The position numbers and the translations under genes are program-made. A DNA stretch of 49,173 bases from Bacteroidales bacterium (GTDB taxonomy: Bacteria; Bacteroidota; Bacteroidia; Bacteroidales; UBA12077), in the NCBI GenBank assembly GCA_030668615.1, contig DAOUTQ010000001.1:1-49173 (forward strand), given 5' to 3'. Under the pieces are notes generated by a model. It had not been told where the DNA came from, searched no databases, and worked only from the letters and a program-made list of their open reading frames with translations. How positions within the stretch are numbered: the stretch's first letter is position 1; each line of letters opens with the position of its first letter. Shown here one piece after another: positions 35,780 through 49,173 of the stretch.

Positions 35780-37036
35780 TTATTGTAGTTTGGTGTTTAT
35801 TTCTGTTTGACCGATTAAGCGATCATAGCCTCCTCGAAAATCGTGGTAATATACGTATATAGCGTAAGAATTCTCGGTTTGTGCATGATTGCCTTCAATG
35901 TACGTAAAATCAAACTTTCCTTTTTCCAACAATGCATACTGGTAATTATAATAACCTTGCTTAATTAACATGCGACCTTCATATGCTTTTTGCTCAAAGT
36001 TATATGTCATTTTGTTTTCATCAGTAAATTCATAATTGCATAAAGCTCCCCAAACATAAATATCACCCTGTTGCATTGGAACATCCATGTTTAGCGTGAA
36101 ATATACCCAGCAATAATCTGCTTCTGTTTCAGGATACTGACTTTGTGATGCATCGATTTTAAATAATCCATTTAAATCAGATTTATAAATATATTCGTCG
36201 AAAGAACGATCTTTGTTTGCAAGCAACTGAAAATGATATTCGTAATTAAGAAAATTAATATTTATGATATTTTCACCTGCGTGATGTATGTTTTTAATGT
36301 TAAAATGATGAAATTCGTTTCCCCCTTTTAATTTTAACGAAGTAAAATTATTATAGGTAAATTCATTTTGATTTATCATATCAGGTTTCTCAGGTTTCAA
36401 ATATTCAAACCTATTTCTGTTTTTAATTACCTCAATTTTTATATTCTGTTGAATATCATAAAAATCATTTTCGAAATAATCTACTACAATTTCAAACTCC
36501 TGGTCGTTGTAGAAATAAGAACCCTGATTCATGTTTCGGATAAAAGCTTTAATGTCTGTTTTTCTTTCAACAACCCTGAATTGTTTAGTTATGAGAATCT
36601 TTTCAGGATTTGAACTTTCAAAAACCTGTACAATATAATTACCCGAAATCATCGGACGCATATAATCGTTTGGTAATTGCAATGTATAATGCGTATAATT
36701 TATTGTTGTATTAAATGAGGATTGATAATCTTGAATCTGATCATCAAAGTAGCCATCAATATATTCGCTTTGATCAAGATCCGTCGGAATCCATTCAGAA
36801 TTACAATGAACAATGGTATATGAAAAATCTCTTGCATCAGTACTTAAATCGTCAAAACTGAGTGTCAGTTTTTTACTGCTTCCTAAATCCCAAATTGGAA
36901 GTGAAAGAGCATCATTATCAGAATACATTAATACGGTTTTTATGTTACTGTCATACACTTTATCGTAAAATGCTTCCTGACAAAAAGCTGCATTAATTAA
37001 AAATAGGAATAAAACTACAGATACTACTTTCTTCAT
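35780..37036 (-). CDS. DUF5103 / type IX secretion system plug-like protein
   Basis: Signal peptide from ATG 37036 (MKKVVSVVLFLFLINAAFCQ). The block IKTVLMY...LTLSFDDLSTDARDFSYTIVHCNSEWIPTDL...YIDGY...IQDYQSSFNTTINYTHY matches my recollection of the DUF5103 N-terminal domain. Confidence 0.5.
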   Translation of the reverse strand: MKKVVSVVLFLFLINAAFCQEAFYDKVYDSNIKTVLMYSDNDALSLPIWDLGSSKKLTLSFDDLSTDARDFSYTIVHCNSEWIPTDLDQSEYIDGYFDDQIQDYQSSFNTTINYTHYTLQLPNDYMRPMISGNYIVQVFESSNPEKILITKQFRVVERKTDIKAFIRNMNQGSYFYNDQEFEIVVDYFENDFYDIQQNIKIEVIKNRNRFEYLKPEKPDMINQNEFTYNNFTSLKLKGGNEFHHFNIKNIHHAGENIININFLNYEYHFQLLANKDRSFDEYIYKSDLNGLFKIDASQSQYPETEADYCWVYFTLNMDVPMQQGDIYVWGALCNYEFTDENKMTYNFEQKAYEGRMLIKQGYYNYQYALLEKGKFDFTYIEGNHAQTENSYAIYVYYHDFRGGYDRLIGQTEINTKLQ

Positions 37037-37060: not shown

Positions 37061-37093
37061 AAAAAAATAAGCCAGCAATAATTGTGCTGGCTT
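37061..37093 (-). terminator. Rho-independent terminator closing the Mrp/complex-I-like operon
   Basis: AAGCCAGCA (37069-37077) pairs with TGCTGGCTT (37085-37093). On the minus strand the stem is followed by a T-run (plus-strand AAAAAAAT, 37061-37068). Confidence 0.7.
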
Positions 37094-37144: not shown

Positions 37145-37627
37145 TTAATCTTCTTTGTTATACAAATGAATCCCGAACGGATTTCTAATATGCTCACGCA
37201 TAAGCTTAGCTTCATTCTCTGTTAATTCTAATTCATTTTTTATTATATCTCCCGATGAAATAATTCCTACCAGGTTATTTGATTCATCAACAATTGGAAT
37301 ATGACGTATTCTTTTCTCTGTCATTATATTCCTTAAATATTTTGTATCGTCATCTGTTTTTCCAATAATTAATTGGTCTTTTGGAGTCATTAAATTTTCA
37401 ATCTTTTGTTCAGTTAATGCAATTCCGGAATTATAGCATTTGTAAAGAATATCTCTTTCTGAAAGGATTCCAACAATTTCATCATTATTATTAATTACCA
37501 ACAAAGATCCTACTTTTAACTCATCTAATCGTGCAATTGCATCATATGCCGATGTATTTTCATGAACAGTATAAACTTTATGATTACCCTGTTCTTTCTT
37601 TTTATTTAGTATTTCCTTTACTAACAT
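37145..37627 (-). CDS. CBS-pair domain protein
   Basis: 160 aa with two CBS motifs (GSLLVINNNDEIVGILSERDIL; RHIPIVDESNNLVGIISSGDII). Confidence 0.8.
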   Translation of the reverse strand: MLVKEILNKKKEQGNHKVYTVHENTSAYDAIARLDELKVGSLLVINNNDEIVGILSERDILYKCYNSGIALTEQKIENLMTPKDQLIIGKTDDDTKYLRNIMTEKRIRHIPIVDESNNLVGIISSGDIIKNELELTENEAKLMREHIRNPFGIHLYNKED

Positions 37628-37706
37628 AGTCTTCTTTTATTTAAAGTTTACAAAGTAAAAATAATAATTTATTTACAACAAATCAATATATGCAGATAAT
37701 TAAATA

Positions 37707-39503
37707 TTATCCATCCTGATTAATAAACTTATCTATTCCGATTGCAGCCTTATGTCCATTAGCAATTCCATGAATTACATCTGGTCCCTGAATTATATCT
37801 CCACCAATAAATAACCATTTAGCTCCTGTTTGGAAATACTCATCTACAACGATTCTACCACGTGGATCAAACTCAATCTGATCACGAGTTTCCGGGTTAA
37901 TATATTCAATATCCATTCCCTGACCAATTGACTCAACTATCATATCAGCCTCAAAGAATTTTGTGTCTTTCTCATCAAACTTTGGACTAAATCGTCCACT
38001 TTCGTCAAATACAGACAAACATTTCTGAACATGCAATCCTTTAATTTTATCGTTCTCAATTTCTATAGATGTTGGTCCCCAACCCGGATCAATTATTGCT
38101 TTTTCTTCTCTTGACTCAACAACTTCTTCTCTGTCGGCAGGCATAATATCTTCTGATTCTAATGATGTAGCAGTTACATCTACTTTTCCGAATTTATTAT
38201 TTTGTAATCGCGCCAACGAACGGGTAATATCCATTGCAACATTACCACCGCCAATAACAACAATCTTTTCTGATACTTGAATTTCTTTACCTAATGAAAT
38301 TTCTCTTAATAAATCGGTTGCAAAAAATACATCTTTATGATCTGATCCTGGGATTCTTGTACTTCTACCAAGGTGCAATCCTGTTCCTGCAAATACTGCA
38401 TCATAGTCACTCTTTAACTTATCTAAAGTTATATCAGTTCCAATATTTACATTGTATTCTATTTTAACACCAAGACTTAAAATGTAATTAATATCTTTAT
38501 CGATTTGATCGTAAGGTAATCGATACTCAGGAATTCCATAACGCATCATCCCTCCAGCCTCAGGTAACTTCTCATAAATTGTACAATCATATCCTGTTAA
38601 TGCAAGATAATAAGCAGCTGATAATCCGGATGGACCAGAACCAATAATTGCTACTTTTTTGCCATTATTTTCAACATTTCCTGCATTTAAAATTTCTTTA
38701 TATTTTTCTGAAGGATTTTGATCGGCAATATATCTCTTCAACCAACGAATTGACAACGGATCTCCTTTATGCCCAATAGAACAAACATCTTCGCATTTGT
38801 GAGTACAAATACGACCGCAAATTTCCGGCAGTGGATTTGTTTCATATAAAATCCGTAAACCTTCTTCTAAATCATCATTCCTGATTGCTTTGATATACTC
38901 AGGTATTCCCATATGAGCTGGACATGTTGCAGTACAAATTCCACATTCAACACATCTGTCAGCCTCTTCTTCTGCCTGTTGTTTTGAGTAACCAGTTACA
39001 AACTCAATAAATGATTTATCCCTATCTTCAGCATGAAGCTCAGGCATATGAACTCTTTCAGTTCCATAAAGTTCATAATTTGGTTCAGGTTTTTTCCAAC
39101 CTTTTTCTTCATTATCCCATGCTTTTTTATCCACTCCCGGAATAAATCTAAACGCATCAGGATCTTCATCTACCCATGTAAAATGATTTGAAAGGCTCAA
39201 CGAATTTGTTGTACATACGTCAACACATAATGCACACCAACAACAACGGCCGTAATCAATCATTGGACGTAAACCACTATCTCCATCTTTTGTTTCAATA
39301 CCATCAACAGGAACAAGGTCGATTGCTTCATTCTGGCAAATATCTTCACAAGTTCCACATCCAATACATGACTCTATATCATTTTTATGAAACCCCCTGT
39401 ATCTTTCGGCACCTTCCCTGCTTTGCGGATCTTTAATAGTAACAGGTTCTTTTACTACATGTTTCCAGGCTGTAAATGGTGATAATATGTCTTTTAATTT
39501 CAT
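37707..39503 (-). CDS. Fusion protein: NuoI/MbhN-like 2x[4Fe-4S] ferredoxin domain + GltD/NfnB/SudA-like NAD(P)H-dependent FAD oxidoreductase
   Basis: Residues ~45-100 carry CIGCGTCEDIC and CCWCALCVDVC (two Cx2Cx2Cx3C). Residues ~180-598 carry CVECGICTATCP, CGRICTHKCEDVC, VAIIGSGPSGLSAAYYL (FAD GxGxxG) and VVIGGGNVAMD (NAD(P)H). Confidence 0.8.
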   Translation of the reverse strand: MKLKDILSPFTAWKHVVKEPVTIKDPQSREGAERYRGFHKNDIESCIGCGTCEDICQNEAIDLVPVDGIETKDGDSGLRPMIDYGRCCWCALCVDVCTTNSLSLSNHFTWVDEDPDAFRFIPGVDKKAWDNEEKGWKKPEPNYELYGTERVHMPELHAEDRDKSFIEFVTGYSKQQAEEEADRCVECGICTATCPAHMGIPEYIKAIRNDDLEEGLRILYETNPLPEICGRICTHKCEDVCSIGHKGDPLSIRWLKRYIADQNPSEKYKEILNAGNVENNGKKVAIIGSGPSGLSAAYYLALTGYDCTIYEKLPEAGGMMRYGIPEYRLPYDQIDKDINYILSLGVKIEYNVNIGTDITLDKLKSDYDAVFAGTGLHLGRSTRIPGSDHKDVFFATDLLREISLGKEIQVSEKIVVIGGGNVAMDITRSLARLQNNKFGKVDVTATSLESEDIMPADREEVVESREEKAIIDPGWGPTSIEIENDKIKGLHVQKCLSVFDESGRFSPKFDEKDTKFFEADMIVESIGQGMDIEYINPETRDQIEFDPRGRIVVDEYFQTGAKWLFIGGDIIQGPDVIHGIANGHKAAIGIDKFINQDG

Positions 39504-39529
39504 ATTTATTATTTAATATTTGCTAATTA

Positions 39530-39892
39530 CTATTTATTATTGATTTTTTGGTTTAGTGTTTTTCGAGATGCTATAAATATTGATGTTAGTTCTTTACTTT
39601 CTTTTTAAAGATCTTCTAACAATTCCAACTTCATTAATTTTTCATCACTAATAAACTCTAACCAAAATATACTTTCATCAGCTTCTTCAATGTCTATACT
39701 TAATTTTGAAATAAAACTTTTCGTGGACTGAGCGATACAAGCTGCTCTATAATTTGCAGCAACAGAAGTAGAACATCGAACTAACTGACCTTTAATATGA
39801 TTCCCTAACATATTTCCAGGAAGAGATAACGCCAATTTCACACATCTATGTGCAAATGCTTTTGTTCTTAATATCAACTCATCTTTGTTCAT
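39530..39892 (-). pseudogene. Four-helix-bundle protein gene (23S rRNA intervening-sequence protein family) with an in-frame TAA
   Basis: 39605-39892 encodes 95 aa (RTKAFAHRCVKLALSLP...GQLVRCSTSVAANYRAA...ESIFWLEF). After the TAA at 39605-39607 the same frame continues as KESKELTSIFIASRKTLNQKINNK to a TAG at 39530-39532, giving the usual ~120-aa family length. Confidence 0.65.
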
Positions 39893-39927
39893 TAATAAAT
39901 ATTCAATAATAATTAATCAATTCTAAA

Positions 39928-41118
39928 TTATCTTTCAATTTCGGGTGGATAAGTGTGTAATGACACCATTAATCCGGCCACATCAGCAATATTTGTATTA
40001 ATAATCATTTTTTCTAATAAAGCAATTGCATGAGTGTAACTTGGTCCACGAACATTTATTCTACGTGGATATTCTGTTCCATCAGAAACCATATAATATC
40101 CATACTCCCCTCTTGTACATTCTGCCCGACTATATGTTTCTCCTTTTGGTACTTTCCAATGAAGCACATTAGGAGTTTTTGCTTTTATATCTCCTTTTTC
40201 CGGCATCTTAGCAAAAATCTGTCGAATTAAATCTATTGAAAGCAAAAGATCTTTTCTTCTCACATCAGCTCTGGTATATATATCAGAATCTTTACCAACA
40301 ATTGCATCAAAATCTAAATCTGCATATTTTAAATATGGATAATCTTTTCTTACATCTTTTGCCACTCCGGCAGCTCTGGCATTTGGACCAGTAATCCCAA
40401 ATTTATTTATCCATGCTGGGTCAATATACCCAATACCAACCGAACGTTTTTTGAAAACAGCATTATTAAACATTACTTTATCAATATCTCCCATAAACTT
40501 CTCTATGGTCTGTAGAGTTTCTTCCATACGTTCTTTAAAGCCGTCAGGTAATAATCCCCGAACACCGCCGGGAAGTTGATACATATGATAAATTCTACCT
40601 CCGGTTAACTCTTCAAATCTATCAAGGACGAGATCGCGAAGATAATTTGCCCATTGGCCAATAATACCTGAACCAAAAGCTCCAGATTGTCCTCCAATCC
40701 ACATAAGATATGACTGCAAGCGTGACATTTCAAGAACAAGAGTTCTTAACCATTTTGCCATTTCCGGAATTTCAATTCCGGCTAATTCTTCCATTGCAGA
40801 TGCAAAACAGTACTCATTAAAATCCGGTTCAGGAACAGCAACTCTACACACAATAGGAAAACATTGAATATATTTTCTGCGCTCCATTAGTTTTTCAAAA
40901 CCACGATGAAGGTAACCAACATGCGTTTCGCAATGCATAACTTCATCGCCTAAGACAGTGAGTTCTAAAGCCATATTCCCGGTAATACCTGGATGCTGTG
41001 GACCTTGCCACAATTTTAGATATTTGTGTGAGCTTAAATCTATATCAATTTTCCCATCAGCATTCTTCTCAGGAAATTGCGATCTGTCTTCAGTTATTTT
41101 AAACAATTTATTTTTCAT
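39928..41118 (-). CDS. NuoD / MbxL-like 49-kDa-type subunit lacking [NiFe]-ligand cysteines
   Basis: GPQHPGITGNM...VGYLHRGFEKLMERRKY is the NuoD/large-subunit signature. The position of the hydrogenase RxCGxC motif reads IVCRVAVPEP. The C-terminus reads SLHTYPPEIER instead of DPCxxCxxR. Confidence 0.8.
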   Translation of the reverse strand: MKNKLFKITEDRSQFPEKNADGKIDIDLSSHKYLKLWQGPQHPGITGNMALELTVLGDEVMHCETHVGYLHRGFEKLMERRKYIQCFPIVCRVAVPEPDFNEYCFASAMEELAGIEIPEMAKWLRTLVLEMSRLQSYLMWIGGQSGAFGSGIIGQWANYLRDLVLDRFEELTGGRIYHMYQLPGGVRGLLPDGFKERMEETLQTIEKFMGDIDKVMFNNAVFKKRSVGIGYIDPAWINKFGITGPNARAAGVAKDVRKDYPYLKYADLDFDAIVGKDSDIYTRADVRRKDLLLSIDLIRQIFAKMPEKGDIKAKTPNVLHWKVPKGETYSRAECTRGEYGYYMVSDGTEYPRRINVRGPSYTHAIALLEKMIINTNIADVAGLMVSLHTYPPEIER

Positions 41119-41626
41119 CTGGATATAGCTTTTTCTTCATGTACTCTGCCGGATCATTTGATTCTCTTCCGGGTCTTGGGAAATATGTATCTTCCGAGTA
41201 TTGCTTTGTATCAAAATCTCTTCTATATGGTGGTTTGTCGTCCCATCCTTCAAGAATAAATGGCTTATCAACATCTGGGCTACCCGGGAAATCAATTCCA
41301 AACATTTCTTTTAATTCTCTCTGATAAGTTGCTACTTGCTCCCATAAATGATGTGCAGTTTCCATAGTAGCATCCTCACGAGAAATAAACACCCTTACTC
41401 CTAAGTCTGATTTCTCATCAGGGTTATTTAAAAGATAAGTCAATTGAAATTCCTCATCTTCCAGCCAGTCAGCAGCAGTAAGTAATACCAAATGCTTAAA
41501 TCCTTTAACATCTCTCAAATAAGTTACTAAAGAAATAGCATGTTCTTTTGGAATTGTGATAAAACTGAGATTTTCTCGCTGCTCAATAATATCAGTTATA
41601 TCAAATTTGGTTTTTATATCGTTCAT
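41108..41626 (-). CDS. NuoC / MbhK-like 30-kDa-type subunit
   Basis: 172 aa. LVTYLRDVKGFKHLVLLTAADW and YQRELKEMFGIDFPG blocks are typical of Complex1_30kDa. Overlaps the NuoD-like start by 11 nt. Confidence 0.75.
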   Translation of the reverse strand: MNDIKTKFDITDIIEQRENLSFITIPKEHAISLVTYLRDVKGFKHLVLLTAADWLEDEEFQLTYLLNNPDEKSDLGVRVFISREDATMETAHHLWEQVATYQRELKEMFGIDFPGSPDVDKPFILEGWDDKPPYRRDFDTKQYSEDTYFPRPGRESNDPAEYMKKKLYPDEK

Positions 41627-41654
41627 TAATTTATTATTTATAATTGATTAATGA

Positions 41655-41717
41655 TTATTGTATTTTGTTAATTATTTTTCGTGATGCAGATAGTAAACTT
41701 TTTACTCCTTTTATCAT
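41655..41717 (-). other. Possible 20-codon remnant of a second four-helix-bundle gene in the NuoB/NuoC spacer
   Basis: Minus-strand MIKGVKSLLSASRKIINKIQ* resembles the C-terminal tail SIFIASRKTLNQKI of the 39530-39892 gene. The DNA block TTTTTCGTGATGCAGATAG compares with TTTTTCGAGATGCTATAAA. Confidence 0.3.
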
Positions 41718-41776
41718 TTTTCTATCTATGTATATTATTCAATAATTAAATAGTCATTAATAAATAGTAAATCTTA

Positions 41777-42415
41777 TTACCAATTATAATCGGGCATATC
41801 CCAATCTTTAATTACTTTCTTTTGATTTGCTTTATACCAATCAAACTTTTCTGCATAGGTATTTGCTCCTTCACCGCGTCCTTCTGTTATAATAGTTTTC
41901 AATTTATCGAAACCTGCTAATAATGATTCTGGTCTTGGCATACAGCCGGCAATATAAACATCAACAGGCATATAATGATCAAGTCTATTTATGGTGTTGT
42001 AGCTATCCCAGTACATTCCGCCGTTTATAGTACAACTACCAAGCGCAATTACAAATTTTGGATTTTGCATTTGCTCATATGTTCGAACAACTCTTTTTAA
42101 AGTTTTCACCGATAAATATCCTGAAACAACAAAAACAGAAGCTTGTCTTGGTGTTGGTCTCCACTGAATCCCATACCTGTAAGCATCAAATCGGGGAGTC
42201 ATTAAAGGGCGCATTTCAATAGCACCACAACCTGTTCCAAATCCAAGTACCCAAAGGGAATTAGCTCTTGCCCAATTCGCAAATTTTTCAATTATTGGAT
42301 GTGCTGGCTTATAAACCTTTGGTTTAGCATCACTAAAATAATCTTTTAAAGGATCTATTTCAATTGGTTTACCCTCAGGGGAAATTACCGTTCTTTTTTT
42401 AAAATCTTCTTTCAT
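41777..42415 (-). CDS. NuoB / MbhJ-like 20-kDa-type subunit with only three cysteines
   Basis: GFGTGCGAIEM (canonical is CCxxE), LGSCTINGG and IAGCMPRPE. No other Cys in the 212 aa. Confidence 0.8.
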   Translation of the reverse strand: MKEDFKKRTVISPEGKPIEIDPLKDYFSDAKPKVYKPAHPIIEKFANWARANSLWVLGFGTGCGAIEMRPLMTPRFDAYRYGIQWRPTPRQASVFVVSGYLSVKTLKRVVRTYEQMQNPKFVIALGSCTINGGMYWDSYNTINRLDHYMPVDVYIAGCMPRPESLLAGFDKLKTIITEGRGEGANTYAEKFDWYKANQKKVIKDWDMPDYNW

Positions 42416-42424
42416 CTTCTAAAA

Positions 42425-43342
42425 TCAAATTAAAATTATTGCAATAATTCCAATAATTAAGGGTACTGTTAAAAACCATCTTACTGATTGATCAACCCTA
42501 AAGCGTGGAAAAACAGTTCCCACAAAAACCGGCCACATATAGATTAAAAATGTTTTAAGGATTAGTTCAGCCCAATTTGTTGCACCTCCAAAAAGCAAAT
42601 TCATAAACAGAATTAATTTTGCTGCGGGAAAAATTGCACGATTAAGTTGCAATACACCCAAAAGACCTGACTGAAATTCTGTAGGTGGTCCTATTGGGAT
42701 TTCCTGTGGAGCTAAAACTACATCGAAAGGTGAACGTCCCATAGCTCCTAAAAACGCAATTAGCATTGCAATTGCGGCAAAAGGATTGGTAATAATTGTC
42801 CAGTTCATAAAACCACCTTGTTGAGCTGCAACAATTTCAGTTATATTTAATGTTTGATATTGCATTGCAATTGCAATAACTCCGAGTGTTAATGGCAATT
42901 CAAATGATGTAACTTGTGATAATCCTCTTGAAACACCAATTGCTGAATAAGGATGTCCACTTTCAGCTGCTCCCAACGCCATTCCTAATATTCCAAAAAA
43001 CTGAAAATAAAGAACTAATACTAAATCTCCGGCAAAAGAAAAGTTTCCAAAAATATCAGATCCAAAAATTACAGGCATAAAAAGTAATAAACCAATACCT
43101 CCTGTTAATCTGAAAACCGGAGCAATATAAAACATAACTCCATGAGTAATGGTGCTACGTTTAGCATAATTTTTAATTATATCGATATATGGCTGATACC
43201 ATCTAATCCCATAACGACGCCCTACTCTTGCACCAATCTTACGAACTACTCCCTGAAGAATAAGTCCATAATTTAAAACAATAAAGATTGTTAAAAGGGC
43301 ATACCCTATATTTTTAAATTCCATATGATCCTCCAAACGCAA
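42425..43342 (-). CDS. NuoH / MbhM-like membrane subunit
   Basis: About 8 TM helices. N-terminal LQGVVRKIGARVGRRYGIRWYQPYIDIIKN parallels the ERK..A..Q.R.GP...QP.AD..K block of NuoH. The start could be ATG 43324 instead. Confidence 0.7.
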   Translation of the reverse strand: MRLEDHMEFKNIGYALLTIFIVLNYGLILQGVVRKIGARVGRRYGIRWYQPYIDIIKNYAKRSTITHGVMFYIAPVFRLTGGIGLLLFMPVIFGSDIFGNFSFAGDLVLVLYFQFFGILGMALGAAESGHPYSAIGVSRGLSQVTSFELPLTLGVIAIAMQYQTLNITEIVAAQQGGFMNWTIITNPFAAIAMLIAFLGAMGRSPFDVVLAPQEIPIGPPTEFQSGLLGVLQLNRAIFPAAKLILFMNLLFGGATNWAELILKTFLIYMWPVFVGTVFPRFRVDQSVRWFLTVPLIIGIIAIILI

Positions 43343-46300
43343 TTAGATAAAAGATTACAATAAACGCAATTATATGAAGCACATAAGTCTGTGCGTTCCC
43401 GTCATAAATTCGCCTGATTTTATCGGCTATAGCATGAATTCCTTCAGATACTGCCTCCCAAAAATCTGAGATGATTGGTGATACAAGAAATCCTAATGCT
43501 TTTTTATAAGGTGCAAAGAAATTATATGCAAAATGTGTAGTCTCCGGCAATGATGGACGTTCAGCTGAATATCCAATATTAAATTGTTTTACTTTCTGAG
43601 CATTTCGGTTCATAAACCATAACCATGCAAAAACTATAACAAATATACCCCCAACGATATACATTATTAACTCACCATTCCAGTAGCCAAAATTACTTAC
43701 TGCTAATTGTCCCTGCCATTCCAAAGCTCCATCAGAAAAATATGGCATTATTACTTCGCCAATTGGTTTTAGTAATGAATTTGGAAATGCAGAGAAGATC
43801 ATTATTACACCTAAAATTATATATTGAGGAAGCAACATCCAGAATGGAGCTTCTTTTACTTCGCGGTGCTCATCTTTAAGTTGACCCAGAAAGATTGTAT
43901 GAATTAATCGGAAACAATATAAGAATGCAATTATTCCTGCAAAAAATATTGCACCGGCAGGTAAAAACCATCCTTTATCTAAAACAGCATTATATAATAT
44001 CCATTTTCCACCAAATCCGGTTAACGGAGGTACGCCTGAAATAACAATAATCCCCATTAAAACAGAAATAAAAGTAAAAGGCATCTTTTTTATTAATCCA
44101 CCCATCTTATACATTTCTTTAGTTTTAACCCTCATAACAACTCCTCCTATCGCAAGGAATAATAATGTTTTAAACATAAAGTGAATAACAGATAATGAAA
44201 CTGCTGCCAACCATCCTAAATGCGACATAAGTGCTAATCCAAACAAGGCATATCCTAAAAATCCAACACTGGAATAAGCAAGTAATCGCTTTGCATCTTC
44301 CTGAAATGCTGCCATCATATTACCCATTATTGCAGTAATAGCGCCAATCCATGCAAGTGCATAATAAATATCAAAACTTCCAAATGATTGAGCTCCCATT
44401 CTTAGCATTAAAACAATTAAACCAAACACACCGGCTTTCAATAAAATTGCTGATACCATAGGTGATACATCGCTTTCAGCCTCGGCATGTGCTCCCGGCA
44501 ACCAAATGTGTAATCCAATGGAAGCAGTTTTAGTCATAAAACCAACTGCCAGTAAAGTAAAAATTATTGGCGCATAGCCCTGTACATTTGCTAAAATATC
44601 AAGCGAATATGATGATTGGCCAATATGAGCCAAACCAAATCCTGCAAGTATTAAATAAGCACCTCCCACCGAGAAAAGCATATAACTCAATGCATGAGTC
44701 ATTGATTTCTTCCCTCTAATAATTAAGAAATATGAACCTATTGTCATTATTTCCCATGCAAAAAAGAATTCGAGTGTTGTATTAGCCTCAATTAAACCAA
44801 GAAGCCCTGCAAACATCATCATTACTAAAGGATAGAAACCTTGTCTTTTCCCTTTATAAGTATATCCCGCAAGTAAAGTAAGAATACCACCTGCAAGAAA
44901 TATCAAAGCAAAAATCAAGTTAAATTCTTCAAGTCCTGGATATATTGTGTATAAATAATATCCTATACCCGCTATTGAAATTGTGTTTTTAATATATACC
45001 GGCAGAAAATCAATTGCATATAAGAAAAGAATAAATAACAGTGGAATGTAATTTAGACTTGCTGCCGAACCTGTTAATGTACTATAATAATATCCAATTG
45101 CATATAAACCTAAAGCAAAAATAATGACAGGTATTATTTTATTCCATTGTATTTTAAATTCAGGTAGATCCTGATTTTCACCTTTAATTGCATATCCAAA
45201 CCAACGGAATAGATAAACTCCTTCGATAAATGATCCGATCAAAATTAGAGCAAGCCAAATAATCTTATCATTATTTGCAAGTTGCATTATTAATTCCCAC
45301 TTTGCAAAGAATGATGGAAATGGCGGGAATCCAACTAAAGCAAAAATGAAAGTCCCCATCAGAACTAATAAATGTGGATTTCTTCTGATTGCTGCCCATC
45401 CCTTTATATTTTTAGAATTAATTATTCCTGATAACCAGAACAATCCGGCTTTTGCAAGAGCATGAGATATTAAAACCCCAAAAGCTATAAATAAAGTTTT
45501 GTCTCCAAGATATGGAGTTAAACCAATTATTGTTAATAGCAGACCTATTTGTCCAATTGATGAGTAACCTAATAAACGGTTTGTTGTGTTTTGTTTTAAT
45601 CCCAATAAATTTGACCCAAGGAAAGTAATGATTCCAATTATACCTATAATATAATACCCCGACTCTCCTACAATTGGTAAAATCTTTGTGAGAACAAAAA
45701 TTACAGCTGATGCGGAAGCTGCAGAAACAATAGTCCCAATTCCTGGATGTGCTGCTTCATAAACATCCAAAGCCCATCCATTTGCAGGAAAAGGCTTTAA
45801 TTCCAAGACTATAGCAATAAGAATTAAAAATACGGCAACTGCGCCACCTTTAATAAAACTTAAATTCGAATTAATAATATCATTAATATATAAAGATTCT
45901 GCATAATAATACACAGCTATAATTCCAATCAATAGTATACCACTAATAATAGCTGTTGCAATAATATATTTAAATCCAGCACTTATAGCATTTGCACTTT
46001 TATCAAGAATAATTAAACCTGCCGTTGCAATACTGGCAATCTCAAGAAATACAAACAGATTGAAAATATCTCTGGTCATTACTACCACATTAAGTCCCAT
46101 GAACAGAAGAACAAATACCATCATCATCTGAACGCCTTTTTCTTTGAGCTTGTCATACATATATATTGCCGATAGCAATCCTACAATATTTATTATGCTC
46201 AAAAAAACTGCTTCATAAAACCCCATTTGCAAACTAATTGAAAATGGTGGTTTAAAACCTGCTGTAAAAATTTGTATTGTTTCCTGTTGCTGAGTTAAAA

Positions 46301-46451
46301 AAGCATACAACCACTGACCCGAAATAAAAGTCATAAAGGTCATTGCTAATAACATAAATGCAAAAGAAAATTTGACATTAGCTTTCTTGAAAAATCCAAG
46401 AGAAAACGCCGTTCCTAATGCAACTGCAATTATATATATTGGTCCTACCAT
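43314..46451 (-). CDS. Fused double antiporter-like subunit (two MrpD/NuoL/M/N-type proton-conducting modules in one 1045-aa protein)
   Basis: Module 1 has DIFNLFVFLEIASIATAGLI and LGYSSIGQIGLL. Module 2 has LEFFFAWEIMTIGSYFLI, WLPGAHAEAESDVS and LLAYSSVGFLGYA. About 28-30 TM helices. Confidence 0.8.
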   Translation of the reverse strand: MVGPIYIIAVALGTAFSLGFFKKANVKFSFAFMLLAMTFMTFISGQWLYAFLTQQQETIQIFTAGFKPPFSISLQMGFYEAVFLSIINIVGLLSAIYMYDKLKEKGVQMMMVFVLLFMGLNVVVMTRDIFNLFVFLEIASIATAGLIILDKSANAISAGFKYIIATAIISGILLIGIIAVYYYAESLYINDIINSNLSFIKGGAVAVFLILIAIVLELKPFPANGWALDVYEAAHPGIGTIVSAASASAVIFVLTKILPIVGESGYYIIGIIGIITFLGSNLLGLKQNTTNRLLGYSSIGQIGLLLTIIGLTPYLGDKTLFIAFGVLISHALAKAGLFWLSGIINSKNIKGWAAIRRNPHLLVLMGTFIFALVGFPPFPSFFAKWELIMQLANNDKIIWLALILIGSFIEGVYLFRWFGYAIKGENQDLPEFKIQWNKIIPVIIFALGLYAIGYYYSTLTGSAASLNYIPLLFILFLYAIDFLPVYIKNTISIAGIGYYLYTIYPGLEEFNLIFALIFLAGGILTLLAGYTYKGKRQGFYPLVMMMFAGLLGLIEANTTLEFFFAWEIMTIGSYFLIIRGKKSMTHALSYMLFSVGGAYLILAGFGLAHIGQSSYSLDILANVQGYAPIIFTLLAVGFMTKTASIGLHIWLPGAHAEAESDVSPMVSAILLKAGVFGLIVLMLRMGAQSFGSFDIYYALAWIGAITAIMGNMMAAFQEDAKRLLAYSSVGFLGYALFGLALMSHLGWLAAVSLSVIHFMFKTLLFLAIGGVVMRVKTKEMYKMGGLIKKMPFTFISVLMGIIVISGVPPLTGFGGKWILYNAVLDKGWFLPAGAIFFAGIIAFLYCFRLIHTIFLGQLKDEHREVKEAPFWMLLPQYIILGVIMIFSAFPNSLLKPIGEVIMPYFSDGALEWQGQLAVSNFGYWNGELIMYIVGGIFVIVFAWLWFMNRNAQKVKQFNIGYSAERPSLPETTHFAYNFFAPYKKALGFLVSPIISDFWEAVSEGIHAIADKIRRIYDGNAQTYVLHIIAFIVIFYLIAFGGSYGI

Positions 46452-46816
46452 TTTAGATCGTTATAATTATTGATTTCTAATGATTTCCTTTTCTGATACA
46501 TTTTTAATACATATGTAAGCATTAGTGCTGTAATACCCAATCCAATTACAATAGCTGTAAGAACTAATGCCTGTGGAACAGGATCAACAACTGCGTTTGC
46601 AGCATTATTTATATCTACAGCATTATCGAGTATTGGTGCTGTCCCGTTCTTAATATAACCAATGCTTACCATTACGATATGTATCCCTGTATCAAACAAG
46701 GCAAATCCGATAATAATCTTTATTAGGTTTTTTTGTGTTAATAAGCCCCATAAACCAATAAGAATTACAAGAATTCCAATAACAAGGCTTATATTTTCTA
46801 AATTAAACTTTTCCAT
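46445..46816 (-). CDS. MrpC/MnhC (NuoK-like) subunit
   Basis: 123 aa, 3 TM. PQALVLTAIVIGLGITALML is typical of MnhC. Overlaps the downstream start by 7 nt. Confidence 0.75.
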   Translation of the reverse strand: MEKFNLENISLVIGILVILIGLWGLLTQKNLIKIIIGFALFDTGIHIVMVSIGYIKNGTAPILDNAVDINNAANAVVDPVPQALVLTAIVIGLGITALMLTYVLKMYQKRKSLEINNYNDLKW

Positions 46817-47514
46817 TATACTTCGTTCTGATTTTCTTGAAGATTAGCAATTATTCCTGATAATTCGGCACCTACTTTTAATCCAACAAAAATGTAGATA
46901 ACAGGAATAAGTCCTGCACTGAAAATTGTTCCGAATTTACCTAAGGATAATAATGTATTGTCGAGAAATCCTGCTGCAAAAATAACACCGGCAACGCCAA
47001 TTAAAACAAAACTCAAACCCGATATTGATTCAACAATTGTAATTAATTTATGACTAACTTCTTTCGCAGGCTGTGACAGCAACATTAAAACCAAGCCCGA
47101 TGCTATTATTGCTCCCCCCTGGAAACCTCCGCCCGGGCTTAAATGTCCGTTAATAAAAACATATATGCCGAATAATAATGTTACCGGCACTAATATTTTT
47201 GATGCTGTATCTAATATTTCACTTGTAGTTCTTAACTTTCGTTTTCGACTTGCACTTGTTTCAATTTTCAGTAAAAAACTCACTATGGCTGCCGACAAGA
47301 ACAAGATAGTTACTTCGCCAAGAGTATCCAACCCACGATATGTAACTACAACTGCTGTTACAAGGTTTGCAGAACCAACTTCTTCAGGTCCCGATACAGC
47401 GTAATGATTTGCTAAAGTATTTAATTCGGAATTACCTTTAAAGCCAACAAATACATTAGCCAATAAAACGGCAAATCCAATTAACACAATAAATATTAAT
47501 ATATTCTTAACCAT
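46816..47514 (-). CDS. MrpB/MnhB-domain subunit (MbhE/F-like)
   Basis: NLVTAVVVTYRGLDTLGEVTILF is the MnhB signature. 232 aa, multi-TM. Confidence 0.75.
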   Translation of the reverse strand: MVKNILIFIVLIGFAVLLANVFVGFKGNSELNTLANHYAVSGPEEVGSANLVTAVVVTYRGLDTLGEVTILFLSAAIVSFLLKIETSASRKRKLRTTSEILDTASKILVPVTLLFGIYVFINGHLSPGGGFQGGAIIASGLVLMLLSQPAKEVSHKLITIVESISGLSFVLIGVAGVIFAAGFLDNTLLSLGKFGTIFSAGLIPVIYIFVGLKVGAELSGIIANLQENQNEV

Positions 47515-47752
47515 TTTGTCTTTTTATTTTGTTTAAAACATAAAAGAAAATAATAGTGGATAATCCACTACCAATAGCTGCTTCTGTCATTGCAACATCA
47601 GGAGCTGACAAAAGCAGATATAATACCGATGCAAACAAACTAACAGCACCTGCAGCTATTATACCTACTACTAAGTTCTTATGAATAATAGCAATTACTG
47701 CCATAATCAGAATTAAAACTCCTATAAAGAGAGCAATTATAAGTTGAATCAT
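47507..47752 (-). CDS. MbhD / MrpA-C-terminal (DUF4040) subunit
   Basis: 81 aa, 3 TM. LLLSAPDVAMTEAAIGSGLSTIIF matches the DUF4040 APDVALTEA block. Confidence 0.7.
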   Translation of the reverse strand: MIQLIIALFIGVLILIMAVIAIIHKNLVVGIIAAGAVSLFASVLYLLLSAPDVAMTEAAIGSGLSTIIFFYVLNKIKRQNG

Positions 47753-47753
47753 G

Positions 47754-48116
47754 TTATTCGTTTTTAATTTCTTTATTTACTTTATAAGTAGTTTCTTCTT
47801 TATCTAACAAATCTGTCACAGTTTTATCTGTCAAAGGAATTTTAATATAATGTGCTGCACGCGCAAGAACATGAGAAGAAACCGGATTGGTAATTAATAT
47901 AAATATCATTAATAATATTAATTTCCCCCACCACTCAGGTGTAATCAATAATAATCCTATTAATGATAAAAGTGTTCCTAAAGTAGAAGCCTTTGTTCCT
48001 GCCTGTATTCGGTTAAACAAATCGGGCATACGAACTAAACCTAAAGCTCCAAGAAATAGGAAAATAGAACCTAACAAAACCAATATTGCACCTATTATTT
48101 CTAATGTACTATCCAT
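47754..48116 (-). CDS. MrpG/MnhG subunit
   Basis: GALGLVRMPDLFNRIQAGTKASTLG is the PhaG/MnhG signature. The ATG at 48116 abuts the upstream stop at 48118. Confidence 0.8.
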   Translation of the reverse strand: MDSTLEIIGAILVLLGSIFLFLGALGLVRMPDLFNRIQAGTKASTLGTLLSLIGLLLITPEWWGKLILLMIFILITNPVSSHVLARAAHYIKIPLTDKTVTDLLDKEETTYKVNKEIKNE

Positions 48117-48117
48117 A

Positions 48118-48378
48118 TTACAATCCCCTTTCAAAATAACGTGAAACAATAATTACTCCCAAAAAGCTAAGTAATCCGTACACTATAGCAACATCCAAAT
48201 AAATTATTCGAGAAGCTAAATAAGCAATTAATGCAATAAGTGCAAGAGAACTAACTGTCATTACATCATATGCAACTAATCGATCCGGAGCTGTCGGGCC
48301 TTTAATAAATCTATAAAGTGATAGCATAATTGCTAACAACATAATTATCGCCGACGCAAAAAGTATTTTACTAACCAT
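48118..48378 (-). CDS. MrpF/MnhF subunit
   Basis: 86 aa. YRFIKGPTAPDRLVAYDVM is the MnhF signature. Confidence 0.8.
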   Translation of the reverse strand: MVSKILFASAIIMLLAIMLSLYRFIKGPTAPDRLVAYDVMTVSSLALIALIAYLASRIIYLDVAIVYGLLSFLGVIIVSRYFERGL

Positions 48379-48865
48379 ATATCTTTTCTAAATGTTTTTC
48401 AAATTTTTTAACAATAGCTTCAGTAGCTTTATCAATATCTTCACAACAAACATCTATACAATGAATGTACAGAATATCATCCTCAATATCAACAGTAAGC
48501 GTACCTGGTGTAAGTGTAATAGAGTTGGCAAGAATCATTCTTCCCATTTTTGATTTTAGTATAGTCTTTGTTTTTATAATTCCCGGATTTATTGGTAAAG
48601 CCGGAGTAAGAACTCGTCTCGCAACATCCAGATTTGATTTAATCAACTCAATTAAGAAAACAAACAGATATAAAATTGTATTCAAGAATGATTTAGGTGT
48701 AAATTTCAATTCATTAAATATCTGTATATGTCGTCCAAAAAGTATTGAAATAATTAGTGAAAGAACAAATCCAATAATTATTAATTCTAATTGAAAACTA
48801 TTATTCAATAAAACCCAAATAATTATTAAAATTATAAAAAGAGATAACTGATTCTTAATCTTCAT
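48371..48865 (-). CDS. MrpE/MnhE subunit
   Basis: NLDVARRVLTPALPINPGII...LANSITLTPGTLTVDI is the MnhE signature. First gene of the operon. Confidence 0.8.
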   Translation of the reverse strand: MKIKNQLSLFIILIIIWVLLNNSFQLELIIIGFVLSLIISILFGRHIQIFNELKFTPKSFLNTILYLFVFLIELIKSNLDVARRVLTPALPINPGIIKTKTILKSKMGRMILANSITLTPGTLTVDIEDDILYIHCIDVCCEDIDKATEAIVKKFEKHLEKIYG

Positions 48866-48912: not shown

Positions 48913-48920
48913 CAAATGTA
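48913..48920 (-). promoter_or_regulatory. Candidate -7 promoter box (TACATTTG on the minus strand) for the Mrp/complex-I-like operon
   Basis: Plus-strand CAAATGTA, 48 nt upstream of the mrpE-like ATG at 48865. Confidence 0.4.
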
Positions 48921-48939: not shown

Positions 48940-48951
48940 ACTTGTACAAGT
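48940..48951. promoter_or_regulatory. Perfect 12-bp palindrome ACTTGTACAAGT, candidate operator
   Basis: Self-complementary. Its centre lies 25 nt upstream of the minus-strand -7 box, roughly at position -40. It sits in the divergent region shared with the FNR-like gene. Confidence 0.35.
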
Positions 48952-49083: not shown

Positions 49084-49173
49084 ATGAATTCATTTAGACC
49101 AACAGGGTGTACAGAATGTAAAGAAAAGTCGTTATGCTTTAAACAATTAAATAAGGACGAACTCAGATTGACA
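49084..49173 (+). CDS. Crp/Fnr family regulator, FNR-type N-terminus (3' end cut by window edge)
   Basis: MNSFRPTGCTECKEKSLCFKQLNKDELRLT. The CX2CX5C spacing and the following F..LN..EL parallel E. coli FNR C20-C23-C29 ([20 protein letters not shown]). Not in the ORF track because only 30 codons are present. Confidence 0.5.
   Translation, partial: MNSFRPTGCTECKEKSLCFKQLNKDELRLT

Follow-up and report, generated by a model that had tools for sequence, protein, structure and literature searches.

The window studied here is a stretch of 49,173 nucleotides (nt) from a Bacteroidales bacterium (GenBank assembly GCA_030668615.1, contig DAOUTQ010000001.1, positions 1 to 49,173). From 37145 to 48865 its minus strand carries a run of co-directional open reading frames (ORFs), visible in the ORF listing and by Pfam, that is closed by a strong terminator. 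An earlier reading of the sequence (the original prediction) had called this run an MBX/MBS-style operon joining Mrp antiporter-like to complex I-like genes. We conclude that it is almost certainly a bacterial MBX-type operon. By its sequence, its orthologue in Thermotoga maritima is the mbx operon, and it is homologous to the genes for MBS, the membrane-bound sulfane reductase of Pyrococcus furiosus; it is real and intact, and its predicted product is a membrane-bound, ion-pumping redox complex of the MBX/MBS type, a relative of complex I.

The operon and its borders

The genes of the transcription unit and its terminator are given below, with lengths in amino acids (aa) and the letters of the MBS subunits.

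48371-48865, minus strand: MbsA/MrpE-like, 164 aa (Pfam MNHE, 6e-42; top PDB match 6u8y_A, 117 bits)
48118-48378, minus strand: MbsB/MrpF-like, 86 aa (Pfam MrpF_PhaF; top PDB match 6u8y_B)
47754-48116, minus strand: MbsC/MrpG-like, 120 aa from ATG 48116 (Pfam PhaG_MnhG; top PDB match 6u8y_C)
47507-47752, minus strand: MbsD (MbhD/DUF4040-like), 81 aa (Pfam MbhD; top PDB match 6u8y_D)
46816-47514, minus strand: MbsE, with MbhE and MnhB on a single chain, 232 aa (Pfam MnhB and MbhE; 6u8y_E, 154 bits, full length)
46445-46816, minus strand: MbsG/MrpC/NuoK-like, 123 aa (Pfam Oxidored_q2; top PDB match 6u8y_G)
43314-46451, minus strand: fused MbsH-MbsH' double antiporter-like pump, 1045 aa (two Proton_antipo_M stretches)
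42425-43324, minus strand: MbsM/NuoH-like membrane anchor of the peripheral arm, 299 aa from ATG 43324 (Pfam NADHdh; 6u8y_M)
41777-42415, minus strand: MbsJ/NuoB-like, 212 aa, with predicted three-Cys proximal [4Fe-4S] site (Pfam Oxidored_q6; 6u8y_J)
41108-41626, minus strand: MbsK/NuoC-like, 172 aa (Pfam Complex1_30kDa; top PDB match 6u8y_K)
39928-41118, minus strand: MbsL/NuoD-like, 396 aa (Pfam Complex1_49kDa, 1e-59; 6u8y_L)
37707-39503, minus strand: MbsN (NuoI-like)::NfnB/GltD-like fusion, 598 aa (Pfam Fer4, Fer4_20 and Pyr_redox_2)
37145-37627, minus strand: free-standing CBS-pair protein, 160 aa, the final gene in the unit (Pfam CBS, 7e-22)
37061-37093, minus strand: intrinsic terminator, AAGCCAGCA-loop-TGCTGGCTT, then ATTTTTTT

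Pfam E-values for these genes range from 1e-15 to 1e-78, so chance is of no concern for the family assignments, which agree with the labels that the original prediction had given to all 13 genes. Its account of the layout was largely right. The overlaps at 48371/48378, 47507/47514, 46816, 46445/46451, 43314/43342 and 41108/41118 are all there, and the terminator is genuine, with a 9-bp stem (37069-37093, five G-C pairs) that precedes a T-run (ATTTTTTT) extending down to 37061. "Tightly packed" holds for the overlapping genes but not for the NuoB|NuoC spacer (150 nt), the spacer between the fusion and the CBS gene (79 nt) or the interval between the NuoD-like gene and the fusion, which holds an additional gene described below. 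No minus-strand terminator-like site was found in any of these three gaps.

Two listed starts, TTG 48149 for the MrpG-like gene and TTG 43342 for the NuoH-like gene, are probably too long. We prefer ATG 48116 and ATG 43324, respectively, because the same starts are called in a related operon (locus L003) that is 86-89% identical to that of the window.

Relationship to the archaeal MBS complex

We compared each product against all PDB chains. For all 13 polypeptide equivalents, the top solved-structure match is the same-lettered chain of P. furiosus MBS (6U8Y), which upholds the MBX/MBS-style assignment. The gene order is likewise colinear with MBS, subunit by subunit (A B C D E G H H' M J K L N), as the original prediction had it for the archaeal mbx/mbs operon. 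We placed L and J by their bit-score margins to solved structures together with synteny: the NuoD-like product scores 311 bits to 6u8y_L versus 202 to Nqo4 and 120 to MbhL, and the NuoB-like product 211 bits to 6u8y_J versus at most 131 to NuoB/NdhK and 93 to MbhJ. The NuoH-like product scores 150 bits to 6u8y_M versus 61 to MbhM. For subunits A, B, C, D, E, G and K, the MBS chain outscores the MBH and Mrp counterparts in every case, and residues 5-134 of the fusion match 6u8y_N.

Three other identities, which the original prediction had also set aside, fail on their defining features. A stand-alone Mrp antiporter was rejected, as five redox-arm genes lie in the same unit with no intervening terminator. 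We rejected an [NiFe] hydrogenase on the absence of all four [NiFe] cysteines, the L1 and L2 CxxC positions being without Cys; moreover, a Pfam scan of the ten neighbouring window proteins turned up no hyp genes. A canonical nuo operon was rejected because NuoE, NuoF, NuoG, NuoA and NuoJ are missing from the operon, it has two antiporter-like modules, and its top matches are to MBS. A group-4 [NiFe] hydrogenase or ordinary nuo operon, for which general subunit homology is the one point in favour, is thus refuted at the sequence level, and we give it practically no weight.

The N subunit departs from the archaeal complex. Instead of a simple ferredoxin-accepting 2x[4Fe-4S] protein, it carries a 450-aa NfnB/GltD domain, and this fusion places the operon in the bacterial MBX subtype rather than the archaeal MBS subtype.

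The predicted catalytic pocket

In MBS, the proximal [4Fe-4S] cluster has three ligands only (MbsJ C28, C93 and C123), a shortened loop leaving C25 out of reach, and this three-Cys cluster is the proposed catalytic site (PMC7684303). MBS is also without the quinone ligands Nqo4 H38 and Y87 and without MbhL E21, and MbsL has just two vestigial [NiFe] cysteines, C85 and C385. Mutagenesis found C25 of MbsJ, and C85 and C385 of MbsL, to be dispensable for catalysis (PMC7684303).

Window J is 54% identical to MbsJ with zero gaps, and would therefore have the same shortened cluster loop. The equivalents of C28, C93 and C123 are kept and C25 is replaced by Gly (GFGTGCGAIEM ... GSCTINGG ... AGCMPRPE), a pattern predicting a proximal [4Fe-4S] cluster held by three Cys ligands. 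The tandem-Cys N2 motif of NuoB is absent from window J.

Window L is 42% identical to MbsL and has none of the four [NiFe] cysteines (RVAVPEPD and SLHTYPPEIER, versus RICVPEPD and SLDNCPPDIDR in MbsL). The positions of MbsL C85 and C385 are Ala and Tyr, and those of Nqo4 H38 and Y87 are Thr and Val. With all of these ligands missing, H2 is excluded as a substrate and quinone is unlikely. The claim that the hydrogenase-like catalytic subunit has lost its metal ligands is therefore correct, though the step from MbsL is small. In a set of 56-75 genome-derived orthologues, all fused-pump members share the single-Cys motif G(F/Y)GTGCG, whereas at the two vestigial positions of L the residue changes freely (A or C; Y or C), a variation that fits their being dispensable. 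As these last two cysteines are dispensable in MBS and variable within the MBX family, their loss is a minor difference.

The pocket also bears on whether the complex could be an alternative NADH:menaquinone oxidoreductase, that is, a complex I substitute with the GltD domain as its N-module. Bacteroidota make menaquinone. Public annotation labels L 'NADH-quinone oxidoreductase subunit D', and window L scores above the cut-off of NCBIfam NF004739 (NuoD) despite its absent quinone ligands; moreover, the entrance to the MBS pocket matches in width that for quinone in complex I (PMC7684303). However, the positions of Nqo4 H38 and Y87 hold Thr and Val, the N2 motif is missing, and the peripheral arm is predicted to attach as in MBS, through transmembrane helices (TM) 15-16 of H', not through NuoA. 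The same pocket sequence also occurs in carriers such as Thermotogota and Halanaerobium, which are reported to lack quinones. We consider a menaquinone reductase very improbable, and the 'subunit D' label is misleading because the quinone ligands are missing.

The flavoprotein fusion

The C-terminal ~450 aa of the fusion (residues 149-596) align end to end with NfnI-L, NfnB and GltD at 240-260 bits (NfnI-L, 259), and NCBIfam PRK13984 ('putative oxidoreductase') matches the whole protein end to end at 899 bits against a cut-off of 946. Together with the match to 6u8y_N, the Pfam and PDB results agree with the original claim of a NuoI-like protein fused to an NAD(P)H flavoprotein. We aligned the window fusion with 13 orthologues that are 40-77% identical to it (alignment A1). 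Sixteen cysteines are invariant: two CxxCxxCxxxC motifs in the NuoI part, and C184/187/190/194 and C229/233/237/241 in the GltD part. Also invariant are the glycines of the FAD motif GxGxxG (G288/G290) and of the NAD(P)H motif GGGNVAMD (G418-G420). The fusion therefore has ligands for four [4Fe-4S] clusters, one FAD and one pyridine-nucleotide site.

The nucleotide site points to NADH. NfnB holds the 2'-phosphate of NADPH with a YRR motif; among DsrL proteins, the YRR enzymes are NADP(H)-specific, and those with an S/T-L/V-E/F-type replacement use NAD(H) experimentally (PMC7596348). At the YRR position the window fusion has SLE (residues 447-449), which, on the DsrL precedent, predicts NADH as its partner. 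Across MBX-family loci this position is split: about 64 of 79, including the window and Thermotoga, have SLE or ALE, and about 14 of 79 have YRR. The split predicts NADH- and NADPH-linked subtypes within the family.

The pump, the membrane anchor and coupling residues

The two pumps are fused into one protein, as originally stated. The N-terminal half of the 1045-aa product matches 6u8y_H (residues 7-260 and onward), and residues 467-1040 of its C-terminal half match 6u8y_X (MbsH') over residues 35-617/618, a stretch that includes the C-terminal region where MbsH' holds TM15, helix HL and TM16. By NCBIfam the same protein is PRK08377 plus PRK08668. Across 48 orthologues of the fused pump that are 39-65% identical overall, 32 charged or His residues are at least 95% conserved, among them E137, K219, K256 and K384 of the N-terminal half and E567, K641, K672 and K761 of the C-terminal half.

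Of the five acidic residues that form the 'charged axis' in MBS, window M retains three (those of MbsM D196, E203 and E211). The MbsD-like subunit has an APDVAMTE motif, and its Glu57 aligns with MbsD E58, a residue named in the MBS study (PMC7684303).

Distribution, synteny and annotation of the family

The original prediction had proposed a survey of gene neighbourhoods for the same NuoI-GltD fusion. Scanning one genome per species, we found it in at least 595 species, Bacteroidota and Thermotoga among them. Among the matches listed are carriers from the Bacteroidota, Cloacimonadota and Spirochaetota, from the Alpha-, Beta- and Gammaproteobacteria (sulfur oxidisers in many cases), and further Halanaerobium, Kosmotogaceae, Bipolaricaulota, Anaerolineales and metagenome-assembled genomes (MAGs) labelled Chlorobiota. 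A protein search returned more than 120 clusters with 75% or higher identity to the fusion, in Bacteroidales MAGs and cultured Prolixibacter, and about a dozen further full-length clusters at the 50% identity level.

For synteny we sampled 80 loci from the at least 595 species, 49 of them long enough for all 12 core genes. Every one of these 49 complete loci holds the full set, A B C D E G H(H') M J K L N::GltD, and even with crude ORF calling strict colinearity is seen in 45. Of the 49, 40 have a fused H-H' and nine have two separate genes. The cultured Prolixibacter bellariivorans and P. denitrificans carry the operon in the fused H-H' form. A GltD-fused N is the standard state of the bacterial MBX family. 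T. maritima and Thermotoga sp. RQ2 (locus L085) have the same operon with split H and H', and their N::GltD is 53% identical to that of the window over its full length.

The family has been met before, in analyses of Thermotoga genomes. Degli Esposti described mbx-like operons with a gltD-related subunit in 2015 (PMC4758237). In T. maritima, S0 induces mbxA 4.4-fold, and the gene responds to thiosulfate as well (PMC9431562). A putative Mrp-Mbx complex of the sulfur-oxidising Riftia symbiont is co-expressed with hydrogenases and the reverse tricarboxylic acid (rTCA) cycle (PMC11636981). Public databases label the fusion 'glutamate synthase small chain / FAD-dependent oxidoreductase' and, as noted above, L as a quinone oxidoreductase subunit; the MBX family looks to be systematically mis-annotated there.

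The sulfur-oxidising carriers raise the possibility that the complex runs backwards, an ion gradient driving electrons from sulfide, polysulfide or another weak donor uphill to NAD+. Autotrophs of this kind are among the hosts (Thiodiazotropha, Thiosymbion, Sedimenticola, Thioalkalivibrio and Gallionellaceae MAGs), and a reaction between NADH and sulfane sulfur would be readily reversible, because the difference in potential is small. Moreover, the related NfnB-like protein DsrL-1, likewise without YRR, reduces NAD+ in sulfur oxidisers (PMC7596348). Thermotoga, in contrast, induces the operon with S0 as acceptor (PMC9431562). The host of the window belongs to the Bacteroidota and has a low GC content. 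Its relatives, Prolixibacter and other Marinilabiliales, live as fermentative heterotrophs that would not obviously need electrons to flow in reverse, and for the window complex we judge this direction improbable.

Accessory genes beside N

The gene directly after N varies by lineage across the 80 loci and encodes a CBS pair, a DHO_dh-like or a rubrerythrin-like protein. A CBS-pair gene lies downstream of N in 15 of the 80, and also in L003 and L004. In 19 loci, mostly Bacteroidota, a divergent DHO_dh-like flavin mononucleotide (TIM-barrel) gene lies within ~20 nt of N::GltD, at times followed by a CBS gene; two examples, both outside the window, are:

L001, 11987-12970: DHO_dh-like gene
L027, 11826-12824: DHO_dh-like gene

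A GltD-like and a DHO_dh-like part make up the domain pairing of dihydropyrimidine dehydrogenase. The pairing suggests that the flavoprotein end may have an additional soluble partner. In about 21 loci from Proteobacteria and Spirochaetota, a rubrerythrin-like gene directly follows N::GltD (for example L039, 11800-12321), and in ~750-aa variants of N a rubrerythrin-like part is fused to the C-terminus (for example L037, L052 and P0121). This neighbour and fusion agree with a remark in the 2015 literature. We looked for DHO_dh-like and rubrerythrin-like genes in the window and found neither; only the CBS gene follows N.

Such neighbours hint at other redox partners, and thereby at a complex of the same architecture with a different acceptor: an organic per- or polysulfide or disulfide (persulfides of CoA or of low-molecular-weight thiols), a sulfane derived from thiosulfate, or some other small oxidant. 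The mechanism given for MBS covers internal disulfides, whether inorganic or organic (PMC7684303), the thiosulfate response of T. maritima mbxA (PMC9431562) would fit, and the family occurs in many organisms that are not known as S0 reducers. However, no positive evidence speaks for any particular alternative, and the pocket subunits are closest to MBS; we regard a different acceptor as rather unlikely.

A proposed mechanism

As the original prediction held, the substrate cannot be read from the sequence. For the window complex, we infer the nucleotide preference, acceptor, direction of electron flow, coupling and regulation from the homologies and ligand patterns above. The reading that we tentatively put forward, with a confidence that stops somewhat short of the halfway mark, is that of an ion-translocating NADH:sulfane-sulfur oxidoreductase with sulfane sulfur as the acceptor. 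We favour it because the catalytic subunits of MBS are conserved, H2 and probably quinone are excluded, and S0 induces the operon in Thermotoga.

In this mechanism NADH would be oxidised at the FAD of the NfnB/GltD-like domain fused to N. Single electrons would then travel by way of that domain's two [4Fe-4S] clusters and the two that the NuoI-like part of the polypeptide holds, and on to the proximal [4Fe-4S] cluster of J, completing a five-cluster wire. With three Cys ligands and one open iron, as in MBS, this last cluster would reduce the S-S bond of a sulfane compound such as polysulfide in the J/L/M pocket. The redox step, acting through the conserved acidic residues of M, would drive H+ pumping by MbsH-H' and would also be linked to the Mrp-like module (A, B, C, D, E and G), where Na+ would be exchanged for H+. 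The CBS protein may be an accessory component, probably a nucleotide-sensing one.

Several points weigh against this proposal, the main weakness being its energetics. NAD+/NADH lies near -320 mV and polysulfide or S0/HS- at about -260 to -270 mV, and transfer from NADH to polysulfide yields ~10-12 kJ per 2 electrons. Corresponding values are 12 kJ for MBH and 42 kJ for the ferredoxin-driven MBS of Pyrococcus (PMC8165549). The expected yield thus fits the range of the one-pump MBH, whereas the window complex has the two-pump layout of MBS. Moreover, the charged-axis residues E104 and E193 of MbsM are not conserved in window M; the authors of the T. maritima study assume ferredoxin, not NAD(P)H, as the donor (PMC9431562); and many hosts of the family are not known sulfur reducers. 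The accessory genes after N differ among lineages, so the flavoprotein end may serve other partners. Finally, we found no purified or assayed GltD-fused member in the searchable literature, just genome-level mentions and one quantitative reverse-transcription PCR study.

The donor and the energetics together bring in the original 'MBX' hypothesis of an Rnf-like, ion-translocating ferredoxin:NAD(P)+ oxidoreductase, in which ferredoxin docks on N, electrons exit via the GltD domain and ~25-35 kJ per 2 electrons would drive the pumps. Such a yield suits a two-pump complex better than does the reduction of polysulfide by NADH. The fusion's N-terminal portion is a bona fide MbsN-like 2x[4Fe-4S] ferredoxin-accepting module, Degli Esposti assigned an Rnf-like role to the mbx-like operons (PMC4758237), and the rTCA cycle co-expressed with the Riftia symbiont complex is ferredoxin-dependent (PMC11636981). 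However, in all structurally known relatives coupling is triggered at the proximal cluster and the L-J-M pocket (PMC7684303), a site that a path from ferredoxin to NAD+ by way of N and GltD alone would bypass. The conservation of the open-iron cluster and its pocket would then go unexplained, given the identities of J and L to MBS and the invariant GTGCG of members with fused H-H', and the GltD fusion may itself occupy the ferredoxin-docking surface. Weighing these, we hold an Rnf-like role to be unlikely, if still worth serious consideration.

The proposed NADH-driven sulfane reduction can also be extended to the family as a whole, with more reserve than for the window complex alone. The family may form a distinct type of respiratory enzyme: an NADH-driven, Na+/H+-pumping sulfane-sulfur reductase that uses an open-iron [4Fe-4S] cluster rather than molybdopterin or quinone, and that in sulfur oxidisers reverses to a gradient-driven sulfide:NAD+ oxidoreductase. 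We think this possible but doubtful. If true, a quinone-independent sulfur respiration, now mis-annotated as 'Nuo + Mrp + glutamate synthase small chain', would have gone unrecognised in many mesophilic Bacteroidota, Spirochaetota, Cloacimonadota and Proteobacteria. Knowledge of the function would fill a gap in energy and redox models of anaerobic Bacteroidota, of Thermotogota, for which sulfur-stimulated growth is a documented case (PMC9431562), and of sulfur-oxidising symbionts. It would also test whether the open-iron sulfur chemistry proposed for archaeal MBS operates in mesophilic bacteria with an NADH partner. The interest lies in the family as a whole, which is very widespread and mis-annotated, and in the prediction of NADH-linked, ion-pumping sulfane reduction at an open-iron cluster; the operon itself is intact and strongly conserved, with fusions at least 75% identical across many Bacteroidales lineages.

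Regulation and the promoter region

Upstream of the operon lie three features, the first of which the gene inventory of the original prediction had overlooked.

49084-49173, plus strand: 5' end of a divergent Crp/FNR-family regulator gene that runs off the window (N-terminus MNSFRPTGCTECKEKSLCF)
48940-48951, minus strand: perfect 12-bp palindrome ACTTGTACAAGT in the promoter region, a candidate operator
48913-48920, minus strand: candidate -7 promoter box TACATTTG, a match to TAnnTTTG, ending 47 nt upstream of the first ATG

The first 30 residues of the regulator carry C-x2-C-x5-C. Full-length homologues of it lie divergently upstream of the same operon in seven Bacteroidota loci (Prolixibacter and six others; for example L001, 245-940, minus strand), and in these a fourth Cys follows 91-92 residues after the third. 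This four-Cys spacing is that of the [4Fe-4S] ligands of Escherichia coli FNR (C20/C23/C29/C122). Such a neighbour suggests oxygen-responsive control with anaerobic induction, in which the adjacent FNR-type regulator would probably switch the operon on without oxygen. Elsewhere in the family, a Rex repressor gene is nearby in four loci and a TetR gene in four Cloacimonadota loci.

TAnnTTTG is the -7 promoter consensus of Bacteroidetes. The palindrome ends 19 nt upstream of the -7 box, with its centre ~25 nt from it. Among eight spacers between the FNR-type regulator gene and the operon, no shared palindrome was found: ACTTGTACAAGT occurs only in the window and is absent from the other seven.

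IVP cassettes in the operon spacers

The 13 genes of the original prediction are all present, but a fourteenth ORF of 95 codons (39605-39892), between the NuoD-like gene and the fusion, had escaped it. It belongs to a 23S rRNA intervening sequence protein (IVP) gene, listed here with a possible second trace in the window and the genes of the closest locus.

39536-39892 (ORF to stop 39605-39892), minus strand: four-helix-bundle (23S rRNA IVP) gene, nonsense-mutated (PF05635, TIGR02436)
41651-41705, minus strand: tentative remnant, within the NuoB|NuoC spacer, of the 3' end of an IVP cassette that was deleted (modest similarity, alignment A3)
L003, 7381-7734 and 9548-9781: IVP-family genes

The window gene has an in-frame TAA after codon 95, and homologous coding continues for 22 more codons; relative to the L003 homologue, TTA has become TAA. 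That homologue, the closest copy, is 72% identical at the nucleotide level over ~400 nt and is an intact 117-aa gene in the NuoB|NuoC spacer of L003, whose own NuoD|N spacer holds an unrelated IVP-family gene. Because the intact gene of L003 stands at exactly that place, the NuoB|NuoC spacer of the window tentatively, and we think probably, holds a 3' remnant of a deleted cassette. No IVP cassettes were found in the Prolixibacter and Thermotoga operons. Evidently, cassettes of ~400 nt, without terminators, come and go in these spacers, and the pattern in close relatives implies recent gain and loss.

Other features of the window

The next gene downstream of the operon encodes a type IX secretion system (T9SS) plug protein (35780-37036, minus strand). 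Its listed start, TTG 37078, falls inside the terminator hairpin; the true start is most likely ATG 37036, beyond the terminator. This adjoining gene, the G+C content of the window (~31%) and the closest homologues of the operon (Bacteroidales and Prolixibacter) support a Bacteroidota origin, in line with the original description of the genome as Bacteroidota-like. By Pfam, the other window genes (S9 peptidase, GDPD, DEAD-box helicases, radical SAM, EamA and the T9SS plug protein) give no hint to function. An Rfam scan of the whole window at the gathering threshold returned zero matches, and thus no riboswitch or leader RNA of a known family.

Comparison with known systems

Relative to Mrp (Mnh/Pha) antiporters, the window has colinear homologues of MrpB, MrpC, MrpD, MrpE, MrpF and MrpG and of the MrpA-type pump. 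Unlike in Mrp, a redox arm of five subunits is attached to this set, and each Mrp-like subunit lies nearer to MBS than to true Mrp. The membrane-bound hydrogenase MBH (6CFW) and other group-4 [NiFe] hydrogenases share an Mrp-like membrane arm and a NuoBCDHI-like arm. The window complex differs from MBH in having no [NiFe] ligands and two pumps rather than one, and the similarity is low (120, 93 and 61 bits for L, J and M).

With complex I (NDH-1), the operon shares the Q-module-like NuoB, C, D, H and I, antiporter-like subunits and, functionally, input through a predicted NAD(P)H-oxidising flavoprotein. However, that flavoprotein is of the NfnB/GltD type and not NuoF/E/G; NuoA and NuoJ genes as such are absent; there are two pumps rather than three; an Mrp Na+ module is present; and the quinone ligands and the tandem-Cys N2 motif are missing. 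The flavoprotein domain resembles NfnB, NfnI-L, GltD and DsrL end to end over 450 aa, with both [4Fe-4S] clusters and the FAD and NAD(P)H sites present, and its non-YRR motif is like that of the NAD(H)-using DsrL-1. Unlike these enzymes, it is covalently joined to the NuoI-like domain of a membrane complex, which leaves no obvious second branch for electron bifurcation, and genes for the partners NfnA, GltB and DsrAB are absent from the operon.

P. furiosus MBS is alike in all 13 chains, in the predicted three-Cys proximal cluster with its shortened loop, in the absence of quinone ligands and in having two antiporter-like pumps with an Mrp-type Na+ module; the C-terminal half of the fused pump corresponds to nearly full-length MbsH', the carrier of helix HL. 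The differences are that MbsN is a plain ferredoxin-accepting 2x[4Fe-4S] protein whereas window N bears an NAD(P)H flavoprotein domain; that the vestigial C85 and C385 of MbsL are Ala and Tyr; that C25 of MbsJ is Gly; that H and H' are fused; and that E104 and E193 of MbsM are not conserved. Moreover, the window host seems to be a mesophilic bacterium, whereas that of MBS is a hyperthermophilic archaeon.

Closer still is the mbx operon of T. maritima and Thermotoga sp. RQ2 (mbxA, THEMA_RS08165). It has the gene order A B C D E G H H' M J K L N, L and J of the MBS type, and an N::GltD with the SLE motif and, as in the window, an extra insertion after GGGNVAMD. It differs in that H and H' are separate (466 and 626 aa), and that the CBS gene, the IVP insertion and the FNR-type neighbour of the window are absent. 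The three differences from archaeal MBS that the original prediction had named (the lost metal ligands, the fused pumps and the flavoprotein fusion) are real, but the novelty that it implied was overstated: the N::GltD and H-H' fusions are common in the family, and operons of this kind have been described since 2015. The window operon is of a known type, in the fused-pump form that the majority of the family has, and is not a new system.

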